Shown: positions 6,415 through 29,432 of the stretch, piece by piece
How positions within the stretch are numbered: position 1 is the first letter of the stretch
Layout of the letters: every line of letters starts with the position of its first letter
The notes under the pieces: model-generated
The model's database searches: none
Told to the model about the DNA's origin: nothing
Seen by the model: only the letters and a program-made list of their open reading frames with translations
Program-made: the position numbers and the translations under genes
Source of the DNA: Patescibacteria group bacterium
GTDB taxonomy: Bacteria > Patescibacteriota > UBA1384 > XYA2-FULL-43-10
Direction of reading: 5' to 3'
Assembly: GCA_041674405.1 (NCBI GenBank)
Contig: JBAYVT010000005.1
Span: 77,047 to 141,046, forward strand
DNA: 64,000 bases

Positions 6415-7062
6415 TCATGGCGCACTAACAAGATTTGAACCGACGAAAAATATTTCTGGATATTCCGGTGATGTATAGGCGCTGGAAAAATCTTTGAGCG
6501 ATTCAGATGCGGACAGTGCCATCGCTTGCCCTTGTGTATCGCGGAGTGTTTGGCTGAAAAATTTCCTACCATTCCCATCATTTGCGATTTCAAGGTGAGC
6601 GGCTAATACATAAGAATATTTCGATGTAAGATAGGTGTAAAAATATTCATTCGGATCCGCATGCCAAGTTACATGGTTTTGGGTATTATCTTTTTGTTTA
6701 GGATCTTCCGCCATAGGAAGGGGAATATATCCGTTGAGAAGCCCATTGAGACCGCTAGACCAGCGATTAGTATTGGGTCCACCATCCGGGTTTGACAATG
6801 AATTACAGCTTCTTACCCGATACCAATTTTGGCCGGCTGGAACATTTACTGCATCATATGGATATACCCTTCTATCGGCATGAAATGCTTCAATTGCCGC
6901 AGCAATTGCCTGAATATCAGCCTTTCTCTTGTTGTCCCGCGCTTTTGCCTGGGCATTGGTATATGAAATGATAATAATTGTTGCAAGAATCCCAATAATT
7001 GCAACTACGACAAGCAGCTCAATTAATGTAAATGCCCTTGATTTTGCTAAATGCCGTCTCAT
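6415..7062 (-). CDS. Type IV pilin (paralog of 7059-7625)
   Basis: 215 aa. [42 protein letters not shown]. The first ~45 aa are nearly identical to the neighbouring gene. Confidence 0.8.
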   Translation of the reverse strand: MRRHLAKSRAFTLIELLVVVAIIGILATIIIISYTNAQAKARDNKRKADIQAIAAAIEAFHADRRVYPYDAVNVPAGQNWYRVRSCNSLSNPDGGPNTNRWSSGLNGLLNGYIPLPMAEDPKQKDNTQNHVTWHADPNEYFYTYLTSKYSYVLAAHLEIANDGNGRKFFSQTLRDTQGQAMALSASESLKDFSSAYTSPEYPEIFFVGSNLVSAP

Positions 7063-8424: not shown

Positions 8425-8450
8425 TACCCACAGGGTCCCCCTAAGGGGAC
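8425..8450 (-). terminator. GC hairpin between the pilin gene and pilD (terminator/attenuator)
   Basis: GGGTCCCC-taa-GGGGACC immediately after the pilin stop. Confidence 0.45.
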
Positions 8451-24744: not shown

Positions 24745-24946
24745 AAAATCACTAGTCCCAGACTAGCAATCTTTTGGCATGGGCTAGAGGAGGATCTCAC
24801 GTCGGCTATTCGCCTCCCTGGATACCCTCGGTTTCCGGCTCCTTCCGACATCGGGAGACCAAATGTTCTCCCGACCCCACTTTGTTCGACTCCTCTAAAA
24901 ACCAAAAGCCATCCCGCATAGTCAATCTTTGATTGGCGACGTGGGA
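24745..24946 (-). ncRNA. Candidate structured ncRNA, or long structured 3' extension of tRNA-Trp, ending in an intrinsic terminator
   Basis: GC-rich relative to the flanks. Nested hairpins: TAGAGGAG/CTCCTCTA closing stem, GTCGGGAGA-acatttgg-TCTCCCGA, GTCGG...CCGAC. Terminator CTAGTC-tggg-GACTAG plus T6 at 24745-24770. Only Arg/Pro-rich short ORFs overlap it. Confidence 0.4.
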
Positions 24947-25019
24947 TGGCAGGGGCTAGAGGAGTCGAACCTCTGACTAGGGTTTTGGAGACCCCTATTA
25001 TACCGTTTAACTAAGCCCC
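24947..25019 (-). tRNA. tRNA-Trp (anticodon CCA)
   Basis: Sense GGGGCTTAG...GGGGT-CTCCAAA-ACCCT...AGAGG-TTCGACT-CCTCT-AGCCCC-T-GCCA. Anticodon loop CUCCAAA; encoded CCA end. Confidence 0.85.
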
Positions 25020-25104
25020 TAAATGAGTCGTAAGCCCATAAAGTTGAGAGTCTATAAAGTAATTCAACAACTTTATGGACTTTAAAAACTTTACAGACTT
25101 TTGA

Positions 25105-25272
25105 CTACTTTGTTTCTTTATGTAACGTTGATTTTTTGCACTTTTTGCAATATTTTTTAAGCTCGATCCTTTTGATCACATCTTGGCCTTTTAGCCTTTT
25201 TTCAGTGTGATGGCCGCGCTCTTTGCAGACTTCACATTCAAGCGTTACAATTGTTCTTGCATCTTTTGCCAT
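25105..25272 (-). CDS. rpmG: 50S ribosomal protein L33
   Basis: 55 aa from an internal Met: MAKDARTIVTLECEVCKERGHHTEKRLKGQDVIKRIELKKYCKKCKKSTLHKETK (CxxC...CxxC zinc ribbon). SD AAAGGAAAT upstream. The 95-aa track ORF is an upstream extension through tRNA trailer sequence. Confidence 0.85.
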   Translation of the reverse strand: MAKDARTIVTLECEVCKERGHHTEKRLKGQDVIKRIELKKYCKKCKKSTLHKETK

Positions 25273-25383
25273 AATTTCCTTTCGAATATTTCGATTGATT
25301 TTATTATTGAGGCTCCTCGACAGGCTCGGAGTCATTCGACTCATCTGGTTTACCATGAGCGAACAGCTTTGTTGTGAGTCGAA

Positions 25384-25458
25384 TGGAGCCACCTGTCGGA
25401 TTTGGACCGACGACCTACTGTTTACAAAACAGTTGCTCTACCACTGAGCTAAGGTGGC
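25384..25458 (-). tRNA. tRNA-Thr (anticodon UGU)
   Basis: Sense GCCACCT-TA-GCTC-AGTGGTA-GAGC-A-ACTGT-TTTGTAA-ACAGT-AGGTC-GTCGG-TCCAAAT-CCGAC-AGGTGGC-T-CCA. Confidence 0.8.
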
Positions 25459-25459
25459 A

Positions 25460-25546
25460 TGGTGCTGAGAGCAGGATTCGAACCTGCGAAGGCCGGAGGC
25501 CGACAGATTTACAGTCTGTTGCGTTTGACCGCTTCGCTATCTCAGC
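25460..25546 (-). tRNA. tRNA-Tyr (anticodon GUA), class II with long variable arm
   Basis: Sense GCTGAGA...ACAGA-CTGTAAA-TCTGT; variable arm CGGCC-TCC-GGCC; GCAGG-TTCGAAT-CCTGC-TCTCAGC-A-CCA. Confidence 0.85.
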
Positions 25547-25702
25547 AAGATATTAATTTGTAGGCTCCTCGACAAGACCCAACGGGTAGCCATTGGCTCC
25601 TTCGGCTCGGGTCTCGGAGTCATTCGACTCATATGTTTTACTGTGAGCATGTCGCTTTATTGAATGGTTTACCATGAGCGAGGAAAGGAATGACGGGTCG
25701 AA

Positions 25703-25780
25703 TGGAGCCGTTGAGCGGACTTATTCCCTCGACCTACTCCTTACCATGCCTGTCCGCCTCTGGCGGAGAGTTGCCCCCAC
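25703..25780 (-). pseudogene. Degenerate tRNA-Thr(GGU)-like copy (pseudo-tRNA) fused to a structured trailer
   Basis: The sense strand retains ...CATGGTAAGG...AGGTCGAGGG...GGCTCCA, colinear with the adjacent tRNA-Thr(GGU), but the acceptor, anticodon and T stems no longer pair. Confidence 0.45.
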
Positions 25781-25783
25781 CGA

Positions 25784-25859
25784 TGGAGCCGACATCGGGA
25801 ATCGGACCCGAGACCTCATCCTTACCATGGATGCGCTCTACCAACTGAGCTATATCGGC
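25784..25859 (-). tRNA. tRNA-Thr (anticodon GGU)
   Basis: Sense GCCGATA-TA-GCTC-AGTTGGTA-GAGC-G-CATCC-ATGGTAA-GGATG-AGGTC-TCGGG-TCCGATT-CCCGA-TGTCGGC-T-CCA. Confidence 0.8.
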
Positions 25860-25980
25860 ATACATCGGCCGGGGTAAATCTACCAAACCCTAAGGGTCCC
25901 CTTTGGGGCTGAGCCACAACGGCACAATAAATACAAAAATAACATTGAAATTATACCGCAAAATCCTCTCTTTGGCAACC

Positions 25981-26733
25981 TTACACTCCCCTGTACGCCT
26001 GAGAGTGAGCTCTCTGCTTTTCCTCCGCCTCCATGGCAAGTTTTTTATACTCTAAATTGTCAATGTCAAGCGACGCAGCACGCTTCAGCGCTTTTGCTGC
26101 TTTCGCAAATTGCCTCACTTCCATATAGGCCTTGCCAAGGCCAGCTTGCCATTCGGCATTATTACGATCGTAATTGACCGCTTTTTGAAAATTTTCTATT
26201 GCATCAGTATATTTTTCATCTTTATAATAAATTTCGCCCAAGATCGCGTAAGCAAATCCGTTATCGGCATTGCATTTAAGCGCGGTTGTGGCAGCTTCTT
26301 TTGCCTCTTCATAATTTTGTTTTAATAATGCAACCTTGCCCACAAAAACATATGCTTGGTCACATTTTTTATCTTTGCCGATCGCATCGATCGCCTTTTC
26401 TTCGGCTAATTTAAGGTCGCCTGCCCTAAAGGCATCATCTGATTCATGGAGCATTTGCGCAACCTCAGGGTCTTCCACAAAATACGTGGCTTGCGCATCC
26501 TCGATTTCTTTTGGTGAGATGATATCACGCTGGCCAGAAATAATTGCTTCTTCAATACCTTTTTCAGCCTTCTCGCGCCTTTTTGACAAGATTTTTTTTA
26601 AAAAATTCATATTAATTCCTTTTGTCGAGTTATCTTTGGCAATATAAATAGATTCATTTCCTGTTTTTGAATAATTTCTAAGAACAAGAATTAATACTAT
26701 GGTAACGCAAATTATTATGCCCAACTCTAACAA
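25981..26733 (-). CDS. TPR-repeat membrane-anchored protein
   Basis: 250 aa with an N-terminal TM helix and several TPR-like repeats (AEWQAGLGKAYMEVRQFAKAAKALKRA...). Confidence 0.6.
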   Translation of the reverse strand: MLELGIIICVTIVLILVLRNYSKTGNESIYIAKDNSTKGINMNFLKKILSKRREKAEKGIEEAIISGQRDIISPKEIEDAQATYFVEDPEVAQMLHESDDAFRAGDLKLAEEKAIDAIGKDKKCDQAYVFVGKVALLKQNYEEAKEAATTALKCNADNGFAYAILGEIYYKDEKYTDAIENFQKAVNYDRNNAEWQAGLGKAYMEVRQFAKAAKALKRAASLDIDNLEYKKLAMEAEEKQRAHSQAYRGV

Positions 26734-29267: not shown

Positions 29268-29432
29268 ATTTTAACTACTAGATATTAGCATAATCTTGAA
29301 AGCATTTCAAGATTATGAAACTAATAACTAAAAGCTTTGAACGAAAAATCTAAAGGAAAATTTCAATTGGTTATTAGTTATTAGATATTAGCCCCAACGG
29401 GGCCCCTTCGGGGTTATTAGTTATTTAAAAAT

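Follow-up and report, generated by a model that had tools for sequence, protein, structure and literature searches.

The tRNA array and its neighbours

The window, by which we mean the whole 64-kb stretch of DNA that was analysed, comes from a Patescibacteria (CPR) bacterium and carries a tRNA array in which every gene lies on the minus strand of the contig. Four tRNA genes are called at this locus by ARAGORN and the Rfam tRNA model, and they are listed here in 5' to 3' order with the promoter and the next gene downstream of the array.

25950-25978, minus strand: sigma-70-type promoter, TTGCCA, 17 nt, TATAAT (11 of 12 consensus positions matched)
25784-25859, minus strand: tRNA-Thr(GGU), inner and intact (ARAGORN; Rfam tRNA model, 64.6 bits; anticodon stem CATCC/GGATG)
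25460-25546, minus strand: tRNA-Tyr(GUA) (ARAGORN, Rfam tRNA model)
25384-25458, minus strand: tRNA-Thr(UGU) (ARAGORN, Rfam tRNA model)
25105-25272, minus strand: rpmG, ribosomal protein L33 (Pfam PF00471, E = 9e-13)
24947-25020, minus strand: tRNA-Trp (ARAGORN, Rfam tRNA model)

This promoter, located about 27 nt 5' of the start of the outer tRNA gene described below, probably drives the entire array, and the same GATATAAT-TTCAATGT motif stands ahead of the first tRNA in the related loci L001, L109 and L110. Between tRNA-Tyr and the inner tRNA-Thr(GGU), at 25547-25783, neither ARAGORN nor Rfam at E<=10 calls a tRNA. Scanned against Rfam, neither the window region (E<=10) nor eight related loci (E<=0.1) contained an intron, ribozyme, riboswitch or sRNA family; the former gave tRNAs and sub-threshold noise, the latter tRNAs only.

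The split outer tRNA-Thr(GGU) gene

Compared with intact alleles from related genomes, the interval 25923-25703 on the minus strand reads as one resident tRNA-Thr(GGU) gene taken apart into four pieces, with the intact inner gene and its flanks lodged among them.

25909-25923, minus strand: outer tRNA piece 1, positions 1-15, GCCGTTGTGGCTCAG, acceptor 5' strand and start of the D arm (collinear with the intact L030, L044 and L007 alleles)
25887-25908, minus strand: 22-nt D-loop insertion of two mini-hairpins, CCCC-AAA-GGGG and ACCC-TTA-GGGT (missing from intact alleles)
25879-25886, minus strand: outer tRNA piece 2, TTGGTAGA, D loop and start of the D-stem 3' strand (alignment to intact alleles)
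25860-25878, minus strand: cassette left flank TTTACCCCGGCCGATGTAT, 5' arm of the stalk (pairs with 25772-25785 in the MFE fold)
25775-25783, minus strand: cassette right flank TCGGTGGGG, 3' arm of the stalk (sequence comparison and MFE fold)
25768-25774, minus strand: outer tRNA piece 3, GCAACTC, end of the D stem, position 26 and most of the anticodon-stem 5' strand (alignment to intact alleles)
25749-25767, minus strand: 19-nt insertion TCCGCCAGAGGCGGACAGG in the outer anticodon stem (perfect 6-bp hairpin)
25703-25748, minus strand: outer tRNA piece 4, anticodon loop (GGT), variable region, T arm, acceptor 3' strand CAACGGC, discriminator T and CCA (alignment to intact alleles)

When joined, the four pieces give 76 nt that are collinear over their full length with the intact tRNA-Thr(GGU) genes of L030, L044 and L007; relative to the L030/L044 allele, the rejoined gene is changed at position 9 and within the T arm. 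The first 23 positions occupy 25923-25879 and positions 24-76 fall in the relic at 25783-25703. Across a separation of 200 nt, the acceptor strand GCCGTTG (25923-25917) has its complement in CAACGGC (25713-25707). An earlier, sequence-only reading of this DNA had taken 25703-25780 for a full-length 78-nt decayed tRNA-Thr(GGU); the likeness to Thr(GGU) is confirmed, with 71% identity to a Thr 3' half over 48 nt, but the full-length copy is not, since positions 1-23 lie at 25923-25879. The stretch consists in order of 6 nt of cassette flank, tRNA positions 24-30, the 19-nt insertion and positions 31-76.

Both ARAGORN and Rfam (E<=10) are silent over 25703-25783, and ARAGORN gives no call even for the rejoined gene. 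The outer T arm is degenerate in the window (GAGGG-AATAAGT-CCGCT). With its ruined T arm and two extra hairpin insertions, the outer gene of this genome has the character of a pseudogene, in agreement with the sequence-only reading that one Thr copy is a non-functional Thr(GGU) derivative. Its loss would be harmless because an intact tRNA-Thr of the same anticodon is present at 25784-25859, scoring 64.6 bits.

The intact gene, presumed to be the working one, is the only gene of a 104-nt cassette in which an inverted-repeat stalk encloses the inner cloverleaf in the MFE fold. The cassette sits between D-stem positions 23 and 24 of the outer gene (GGTAGA|GCAACTC), and its left flank terminates in GCCGATGTAT, which resembles the opening 10 nt of the inner tRNA or those of another allele. 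Inner and outer tRNA-Thr(GGU) are different alleles. No target-site duplication is present at the cassette. Genes for a recombinase, integrase or endonuclease are missing to a distance of about 3.5 kb in the window, and the neighbouring ORFs have no recombinase domain.

The sequence-only reading had explained the locus by a tandem duplication of a tRNA-Thr plus trailer unit, one copy of which decayed in place into a full-length pseudo-tRNA in the slot of a lost tRNA-Gly, within an operon of the thrU-tyrU-glyT-thrT type. Two trailer copies and an uncalled Thr-like sequence are indeed found, but the intact tRNA-Thr(GGU) separates the relic from its 5' third, and what seemed a decayed duplicate is the 3' remainder of a gene into which its neighbour was inserted. 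Nor is it a copy of the Thr(UGU) unit: the two belong to different allele families, and the relic derives from a Thr(GGU) allele that is intact in L007, L030 and L044. The proposed replacement of a tRNA-Gly is refuted, as none is called in the window and the cluster contains one in 0 of about 45 related loci; at these, one or more of Thr(GGU), Tyr and Thr(UGU) precede rpmG and tRNA-Trp, with spacers of 1-6 nt in the most compact clusters. With tufB missing and rpmG downstream instead, the cluster is not a homologue of thrU-tyrU-glyT-thrT-tufB, and decay in place is highly improbable.

Double mini-hairpins like that of the D-loop insertion also occur at about 8426-8448 and 29392-29413, and the window contains seven CCCC-N3/4-GGGG sites where 0.29 are expected. 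A genome-wide excess of perfect hairpins was considered as the source of the inserts and rejected, the window holding only about twice the shuffled count without a local peak. A pseudoknot in the relic (GGCGGAC/GUCCGCU) was also dropped, being present in the window, weaker in L003 and missing in L040. Searched against viral contigs, the relic tract gave zero matches.

The same nesting in related genomes

Nesting at the identical site was found in six related genome lineages, among them L040, L003, L046, L051/52/53 and L092/97, and the insertion site GGTAGA|GCAACTC is invariant across all nested loci. Left flanks of the TTYACCCCGCC type are homologous in L003, L046, L092, L040 and L051, and a homologue of the right flank, GGCGGGG, is present at six other loci. 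The 19-nt anticodon-stem hairpin occupies the same site in L040, L003, L046 and L051/52, and in L092 it is enlarged by 49 nt. Within this same scaffold, the inner tRNA of L092 is of type 2, not type 1, which implies that the inner gene is exchangeable or that the scaffold is old. A nested Thr(UGU) is found in L035. Uninterrupted alleles of the outer gene occur in L007, L026, L027, L030 and L044, which represent empty sites.

The independent ENA and JGI assemblies that hold this layout also argue against a chimeric join in a repetitive tRNA cluster, since they repeat the nesting with lineage-specific differences. The region is evidently hard to assemble, as contigs of the relatives L005, L006, L109 and L110 (look-ups of P0003, P0004, P0005 and P0009) stop at the cluster edge, but we regard the chance of an assembly or binning artefact as negligible.

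Once the insertions are removed, ARAGORN calls a perfect tRNA-Thr(GGU) from the outer genes of L040 (two insertions) and L092 (six) and a near-perfect one from L046 (five), and the window, L003 and L051 still give no call. These flawless cloverleaves would be expected if the outer tRNA were functional and its hairpins and cassette were excised by some bacterial pathway, in the manner of archaeal multi-intron or split tRNAs. The outer acceptor stems fit this as well, varying among lineages with complementarity kept, and so does the fact that every insertion is a self-contained hairpin in or beside a loop. Bacteria are not known to have a tRNA-splicing endonuclease pathway. The structural evidence is adverse: inspection by hand of the window and L040 revealed no bulge-helix-bulge geometry at the 19-nt or cassette junctions and no 3-nt bulges 4 bp apart, the cassette 3' junction falls within a continuous helix, and the Rfam scans at the thresholds given above matched no group I intron or ribozyme family. 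Furthermore, the T arm is destroyed in the window, L003 (which has the window's derived T-arm sequence) and L051, the outer gene of L046 has C at position 33, that of L052 has lost CCA, and at all loci inspected the interrupted copy has an intact neighbour with the same anticodon. A functional outer tRNA is thus very unlikely.

Conservation of the outer remains is uneven. The 48-nt tract to the right of the cassette is 96% (L040), 88% (L051) and 75% (L003) identical to the window, the level of functional tRNAs, and identity drops sharply at the T arm and acceptor. The helix CUCCGCCA/UGGUAAGGAG, built of the old anticodon arm, has two pairs altered on both sides, a weak signal that 28 of 500 shuffles reach, and L003 has compensatory changes in it. 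A relic tract as conserved as real tRNAs, together with these changes in L003, suggests that the relic RNA may have a role of its own. The conserved tract and the weak helix signal also favour a reading in which the nesting is old and vertically inherited, and the outer remains, stalk and T-modules (described below) were exapted as a leader-trailer scaffold guiding the processing of the inner tRNA and its neighbours and are not mobile. Enclosure of the inner cloverleaf by the stalk and retention of the T-module boxes where PSP1 identity is 55-63% are consistent with it. The scaffold is, however, wholly absent from the close relatives L001, L026, L027, L056, L057 and L064 and is therefore dispensable, and the decay of acceptor and T arm differs by lineage. 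The outer acceptors match different functional alleles found elsewhere, a pattern more in keeping with independent invasions than with a single origin; the L092 outer gene, for instance, equals the L002 gene apart from one compensatory pair. On balance, we consider vertical inheritance of an exapted scaffold unlikely.

A structured module after the tRNA genes

Two trailers in the window are copies of one element, here called the T-module.

25563-25702, minus strand: T-module, long copy, 140 nt, 3' trailer of the outer tRNA (nhmmer E = 6e-24; fold z = -3.4)
25311-25383, minus strand: T-module, short copy, 73 nt, trailer of tRNA-Thr(UGU) (nhmmer E = 1.3e-16; fold z = -3.9)

The block ATGAGTCGAATGACTCCGAG has two exact occurrences in the 64 kb where 0.00 are expected, CGCTCATGGTAAACCA also has two, GGCTCCATTCGAC and TGTCGAGGAGCCT are likewise common to both copies, and the 11-nt inverted repeat CATTCGACTCA/TGAGTCGAATG is 100% complementary. 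Blocks inserted within hairpins set the long copy apart from the short one, which terminates 38 nt ahead of the rpmG start codon. Both closing helices draw in a GGCTC, at 25705-25709 for the long copy and 25386-25390 for the short one. The repeated trailer modules that the sequence-only reading had noticed are real and fold better than shuffled sequences, and it was correct in attaching one structured copy to each of two tRNA-Thr genes and in proposing a possible pairing between trailer and tRNA 3' end.

A search with an nhmmer profile placed nine copies in six genomes, all of them in tRNA clusters. Eight begin directly after the encoded CCA of a tRNA or tRNA remnant; for the ninth, in L068, the position relative to CCA was not read. 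The trailer position of the short copy is also occupied in L057 and L060, and in both the window and L060 the T-module follows the old, outer 3' end rather than the inserted gene. The structure P1a+P1b+H1 is paired in 84.9% of cells across the nine sequences, in which seven pairs are altered on both sides (reached by 3 of 500 shuffles) and alternative pairings show zero covariation. Covariation is partial in the sense that six of the seven lie in one hairpin, H1, where six of nine pairs are compensatory. The H1 pattern could also stem from independent insertions of palindromes. The boxes are conserved among genomes whose PSP1 proteins are 55-63% identical.

Taken together, these observations describe what appears to be a conserved structured family, with a predicted helix that clamps the tRNA 3' end (GGCUC plus CAUUCGACU) onto downstream boxes, and we regard the T-module as a putative, previously undescribed structured RNA element following tRNA genes in this group of ultrasmall bacteria. 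It matched no Rfam family. No minus-strand site resembling an intrinsic terminator occurs in 24800-26100, and a T run follows the module in the L047 copy only. Among viral contigs, its pattern gave a single chance match inside a high-GC phage capsid gene. Derivation of the T-module from a degraded 3' half of the outer tRNA was considered and dropped, the likeness being confined to CTCATGGTAA.

Alternatively, the T-module might be a MITE-like or hairpin-dependent mobile element, small and non-autonomous, with tRNA-gene 3' ends as its target and no function as a trailer. Its termini are inverted repeats, GGCTCC(AT)TCGAC and GTCGA-GGAGCC, and its distribution is patchy, with different tRNAs preceding it in different genomes. 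The two window copies have exact 20-mer and 16-mer blocks in common, unlike the copies of other genomes, the post-Tyr copy of L065 retains a GGGCC end that is unable to pair with the Tyr 3' end, and a Box-B-like sequence is reversed in L035 and L092. Against this, the copies seen are solely next to tRNAs and have the tRNA's orientation in 9 of 9 cases; the 64-kb window holds only the two trailer copies, whose ends show no target duplication and which have no linked transposase, and the covariation of the internal hairpin suggests selection for structure. Mobility of the T-module is possible but doubtful.

The tRNA cluster as a site of insertion

Across the related clusters, spacers measure anything between 1 and 742 nt, the genes do not keep one order, and orphan 5' and 3' tRNA fragments are found in L039, L060, L002 and L092/97. 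By these signs the cluster appears to be an insertion hotspot. Some relatives carry an ORF of about 200 aa between tRNA-Tyr and tRNA-Thr(UGU), with a distinct Thr(UGU) allele in the three copies that were read (L001, L039 and L047). The Thr(UGU) alleles comprise a CTGTTTTGTAAACAG type and a CACTTTTGTAAAGTG allele linked to the ORF. A LYWGEGTK motif seen by eye raised the possibility of a LAGLIDADG-type homing endonuclease, but Pfam, NCBIfam and PDB sequence searches gave weak N-terminal HTH matches only. The ORF is not present in the window. A search of genome contigs with the PSP1 protein returned distant taxa only (L008-L025).

Proposed replacement of a resident tRNA gene

The explanation that we favour, and consider fairly probable, is replacement of the resident tRNA-Thr(GGU) by a cassette bearing its own substitute, within a cluster prone to insertion, with the T-module as the trailer of the old gene. 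The resident gene was probably single-copy and essential. A 104-nt cassette carrying a different allele of tRNA-Thr(GGU) would have landed in its D stem, and the disruption would have been harmless because the cassette supplies a working tRNA of the same anticodon. The old gene, now dispensable, could then have accumulated the additional hairpin insertions and lost its T arm, and transcription from the operon promoter would still cover it, the remnants now forming the inner tRNA's leader and trailer. The long T-module would be its native 3' trailer, with the second, shorter copy on tRNA-Thr(UGU).

Spread of the cassette may have occurred by recombination or homing-type gene conversion in which the adjacent 48 nt were co-converted, and the stalk and T-module helices may serve precursor processing, for example double-strand-specific cleavage or 3'-end protection, and would then not be purely selfish DNA. 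Several observations weigh against replacement: the cassette lacks both a target-site duplication and a nearby recombinase, integrase or endonuclease gene; the flawless outer cloverleaves of L040 and L092, despite two and six insertions, are unexpected of dead genes; the scaffold of L092 contains an inner tRNA of another type; and the relic tract shows the conservation of real tRNAs.

A further, tentative proposal is that the 104-nt unit is a new kind of miniature selfish cassette that invades the D stem of a resident gene of the same anticodon and is tolerated as the supplier of a replacement. Such a cassette would spread between Patescibacteria lineages by homing-like gene conversion together with the adjacent tract carrying the 19-nt hairpin, and the T-module and small hairpin inserts would be further structure-dependent elements specialised for tRNA genes.

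Replacement by nesting would have consequences for both annotation and evolution. Standard tRNA finders report a clean tRNA and a "spacer" at such a locus and miss the wreck of a second tRNA gene, including wrecks in relatives with up to six insertions that would still rejoin into perfect tRNAs. These ultrasmall bacteria probably keep one gene per tRNA, and nested replacement offers a route for the turnover of such a gene that avoids a lethal intermediate. It also suggests that tRNA clusters are recombination hotspots in these bacteria. The T-module is worth testing as a processing signal or a mobile element, and if the outer genes were expressed, they would constitute the first bacterial counterpart of archaeal multi-intron and split tRNAs.

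Comparison with known systems

Bacterial integrases reportedly leave att-site duplications of tRNA 3' ends, and their insertion rebuilds one hybrid tRNA gene and displaces one fragment. Partial tRNA copies adjoin an intact gene in that case as in ours, and classical-looking tRNA 3'-end repeats, comparable to att sites, follow inserts of 95-170 nt in L002, L060 and L092/97. In the window, by contrast, a whole independent tRNA sits between the halves of another; the remnants are complementary halves of one gene rather than repeats, with no integrase near. Leader-trailer processing stalks of rRNA operons and functional tRNA 3' external spacers provide another parallel, in that the flanks of a stable RNA form a long helix and a conserved structured spacer follows a tRNA. 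The T-module differs in having no Rfam match, and the stalk and T-module described here are known from sequence alone.

In Patescibacteria, self-splicing IA group I introns interrupt the anticodon loop (35/36) of tRNA-Asn and tRNA-Asp (Nakagawa et al. 2026, PMC13011429). These belong to the same phylum and likewise represent interrupted tRNA genes overlooked by standard annotation, but the present inserts, at 19-104 nt, are below the size of a group I core, lie in the D loop, D stem and anticodon stem, and have no Rfam intron match. The free-standing homing endonuclease cassette SegB of phage T4 (PMC2330249) similarly makes a tRNA cluster the arena of gene-conversion-type spread with co-conversion of flanks. 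Unlike the present cassette, SegB substitutes regions rather than nesting genes; no ORF of this kind occurs in the window, and that of the relatives gives weak HTH matches only.

A resemblance in anticodon and outcome is offered by the tRNA-Thr(GGU) locus of Caldiarchaeum subterraneum, where the gene is disrupted, a 1.8-kb element carries a recombinase gene and the surviving genes contain introns (Sugahara et al. 2012, PMC3293823). Both loci combine a disrupted resident tRNA-Thr(GGU) and an orphan tRNA fragment with a complete neighbouring gene that has the same anticodon. Both also vary among relatives, and for each a mobile element has been proposed as the invader responsible. The present insert differs in its size of 104 nt, with a tRNA as the sole gene, in its bacterial host, and in being flanked by both the 5' and the 3' remnants of the disrupted gene, which makes the nesting a true one.

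Cluster organization and host

The genome of the window belongs to the Patescibacteria (CPR) and has Berkelbacteria among its relatives. PSP1/RicT has a match at 100% identity under the name "Patescibacteria group bacterium", and weaker matches bear Berkelbacteria names. A near-consensus promoter (TTGCCA, 17 nt, TATAAT; 11/12 matches) lies at 25978-25950 on the minus strand, where the genes are ordered as follows.

Gene order, minus strand
holB, PSP1 and TPR protein, first in the order
25859-25784, minus, tRNA-Thr(GGU)
237-nt spacer, minus
25546-25460, minus, tRNA-Tyr
25458-25384, minus, tRNA-Thr(UGU), followed by a trailer
25272-25105, minus, rpmG
25020-24947, minus, tRNA-Trp

Related loci carrying this cluster (numbered L) were retrieved via their PSP1 and L33 proteins, and they usually contain Thr(GGU), Tyr and Thr(UGU) in either order, then rpmG and tRNA-Trp, with spacers of 1 to 742 nt. 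Gene order differs among near relatives, as L109 and L110 have the same promoter followed first by Thr(UGU), not Thr(GGU). A tRNA-Gly, which the sequence-only reading supposed to have been replaced in the 237-nt spacer, is absent from every related cluster retrieved, and that proposal was wrong. The cluster is an insertion hotspot across the clade. In the closest relatives (L005, L006, L109, L110) contigs break off within approximately 100-200 nt of the end of the TPR gene, either where the cluster starts or a little way into it, which suggests strain heterogeneity or assembly-breaking repeats.

A tRNA-Thr(GGU) gene nested within another

In agreement with the sequence-only reading, which had placed a decayed pseudo-tRNA in the 237-nt spacer, ARAGORN and the Rfam tRNA model call no tRNA there, and no Rfam family matches even at E = 10. 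The observation was real and its interpretation correct in part: the relic is derived from tRNA-Thr(GGU), but it is the back part of a split gene. From GCAACTC onward it matches an intact Thr(GGU) allele type, GCCGTTGTAGCTCAGTTGGTAGAGCAACTCCATGGTAAGGAGTAGGTC...CAACGGCTCCA, present in L007, L030, L044 and others, and the front part that it lacks, GCCGTTGTGGCTCAG...TTGGTAGA, is found at 25923-25879, upstream of the called (inner) tRNA-Thr(GGU). Four pieces of this outer gene (25923-25909, 25886-25879, 25774-25768 and 25748-25703) join into 76 nt collinear with the intact genes, and are separated by three insertions.

Insertions in the outer gene
22-nt double mini-hairpin, in the D loop
104-nt cassette, with the complete inner tRNA flanked by TTTACCCCGGCCGATGTAT and TCGGTGGGG
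19-nt hairpin TCCGCCAGAGGCGGACAGG, in the anticodon stem

The minimum free energy fold pairs the two flanks of the inner tRNA as a stalk around its cloverleaf. The T arm of the outer gene has degenerated (GAGGG-AATAAGT-CCGCT); even once reassembled, this gene is not accepted by ARAGORN. Judged by sequence comparison, the locus is a gene-in-gene replacement of tRNA-Thr(GGU).

Directly before the inner tRNA start GCCGATATAG, at 25861-25870 (minus), stands GCCGATGTAT, which resembles the opening 9-10 nt of a different Thr(GGU) allele (cf. GCCGATGTAGC in L057) and may be an orphan copy of them; such a copy would hint at more than one round of replacement.

Recurrence of the nesting in relatives

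The insertion point, between GGTAGA and GCAACTC, recurs in L040, L003, L046, L051/52/53 and L092/97, where the stalk flanks are homologous (TTYACCCCGCC and GGCGGGGCA) and the 19-nt hairpin is present as well. The outer genes are preserved to different degrees.

Outer tRNA-Thr(GGU) genes as judged by ARAGORN
L040, 2 insertions removed, perfect
L092, 6 insertions removed, perfect
L046, 5 insertions removed, nearly perfect, with C at position 33
Window, L003 and L051, no call

Outer acceptor stems vary by lineage and stay complementary (GCCGTTG/CAACGGC, GCCCACG/CGTGGGC, GCCCAGA/TCTGGGC), and the outer gene of L092 differs from the functional L002 gene by a single compensatory pair. The 48-nt tract to the right of the cassette is 96%, 88% and 75% identical between the window and L040, L051 and L003, respectively, a degree of conservation comparable with that of functional tRNAs; beyond it, in the T arm, the similarity of the outer genes falls off sharply. 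Neither the lineage-specific, perfectly paired acceptor stems nor the conservation of this tract would be expected from one ancient insertion and subsequent neutral decay. Under one of two remaining readings, a single cassette would repeatedly have invaded different resident alleles and co-converted the tract beside it.

Under the second reading, the outer RNA would still be in use. A helix formed from the old anticodon arm (CUCCGCCA/UGGUAAGGAG) shows two compensatory pairs, both from L003, a weak signal reached by 28 of 500 shuffles, and alternatives to this helix show no compensatory support. We favour repeated invasion with co-conversion because several lineages have plainly disrupted outer genes, the scaffold is missing from clean relatives, and each interrupted copy at the loci inspected adjoins an intact gene of its own anticodon. 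Orphan 5' or 3' tRNA fragments occur in L039, L060, L002 and L092/97. We infer the mechanism of cassette insertion; no recombinase or nuclease gene lies near the cluster in the window, and the cassette has no target-site duplication.

The nearest parallel comes from an archaeon, Caldiarchaeum, at whose tRNA-Thr(GGU) locus a mobile element is proposed to have left a tRNA fragment beside a complete gene (PMC3293823). The att-site duplications of bacteria are likewise related. Unlike these, the window holds a whole tRNA between two halves of another, within an insert of only 104 nt and without a recombinase. Group I introns in Patescibacteria tRNAs (PMC13011429) are a different phenomenon, as the window matches no intron model and sizes and sites differ. 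We found no account in the literature of nested tRNA genes, or of the trailer described below, in CPR bacteria.

A nested tRNA-Thr(UGU) was also seen in L035 (2157-2470), where the outer gene, GCCACCTTAGCTCAGTGGT...CAACTGTTTT...TCCAAATCCGACAGGTGGCTCCA, is split in its anticodon loop, where a whole Thr(UGU) gene of a different allele lies within a 7-bp inverted repeat, and has hairpin inserts in its D and T loops too.

A conserved trailer family

The repeated trailer noticed in the sequence-only reading is real, and belongs to an undescribed conserved family, here termed the T-module. The window has a short copy after tRNA-Thr(UGU) (25311-25383) and a long copy after the outer tRNA (25563-25702), which share a 20-mer and a 16-mer, each found exactly twice in 64 kb (0.00 and 0.37 expected), and further blocks; the long copy has extra blocks inserted within hairpins. 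Both fold markedly better than shuffles (z = -3.9 and -3.4), with an outer helix linking the tRNA 3' end to the trailer's far end.

An nhmmer profile found 9 copies in 6 genomes: two each in the window and L065, where one follows tRNA-Tyr, and one each in L047, L068, L039, L060 and L057. All nine have the tRNA's orientation, and the eight whose context was read, all but that of L068, start directly after an encoded CCA. The conserved boxes and the variable parts between them run in the order [U/C]UCGACUCG, a variable hairpin (H1), CCUCGCUCAUGG-loop-CCA, a variable region, AGUCGAAUGAC[C/U]C[U/C]GAG, a variable hairpin and GUCGA[A/G]G[G/A]GCC. The structure tested (GGCUC with G[G/A]GCC, CAUUCGACU with AGUCGAAUG, H1 closed) has 84.9% of cells paired and 7 pairs changed on both sides. 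Of 500 shuffles, 3 reached this count of 7, and 6 of the 7 pairs are in H1. Two other pairings fit the sequences but show no covariation.

In the window and L060 the T-module comes after the old (outer or duplicated) 3' end, and is therefore part of the resident gene, not the cassette. The pair of copies in the window resemble each other more closely than do copies across genomes, and the end of the Tyr-linked copy is unable to pair with tRNA-Tyr; both observations favour duplication or mobility. Strict position and orientation and internal covariation argue for a role in the transcript. We read the T-module as a structured 3' spacer that would clamp the tRNA 3' end, with a probable part in guiding or limiting processing; a MITE-like selfish element is a serious alternative.

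Other small elements around the tRNA genes

Just past tRNA-Trp (24909-24946, minus) lies a hairpin, TCCCACGTCGCC...CTATGCGGGATGG, followed by CTTTTGGTT. The same CCCACGTCGC/CTATGCGGG hairpin, with a conserved A-C mismatch, also occurs 3' of tRNAs in L001, L092, L044, L039 and L060, and probably represents either a terminator or another family of trailers. Tandem GC mini-hairpins (ACCC-N3/4-GGGT beside CCCC-N3/4-GGGG) are found at 8426-8448 and 29392-29413 (intergenic) as well as in the outer D loop (25887-25908); CCCC-N3/4-GGGG has 7 sites in the window against 0.29 expected, and these elements may form a dispersed mini-palindrome family.

An ORF of ~200 aa with an N-terminal HTH occupies the 640-730-nt spacer between tRNA-Tyr and tRNA-Thr(UGU) in L001 (5731-6333), L039 and L047, and spacers of equal size occur in L033, L038, L054 and L068. 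In each copy read, its end coincides with the first base of a Thr(UGU) gene of a distinct allele (anticodon stem CACTT/AAGTG), and it looks like a candidate free-standing homing cassette encoding a putative nuclease. A 117-nt unit begins directly after the tRNA-Tyr CCA and closes with a copy of that tRNA's final 18 nt; L092 (2207-2376) has one such unit, and L097 (2090-2376), identical in other respects, has two in tandem. Comparable inserts that finish with a repeated tRNA 3' end occur in L002 and L060, and GAACGGGAAGG is common to L001 and L002. Finally, L046 (1285-1569) carries two insertions of a 20-nt palindrome, CCTGCCTG[C/T]CGGCAGACAGG, in a single outer tRNA, one ahead of the D stem and the other in the T loop, and a related copy is found in L003 near 6571-6590.
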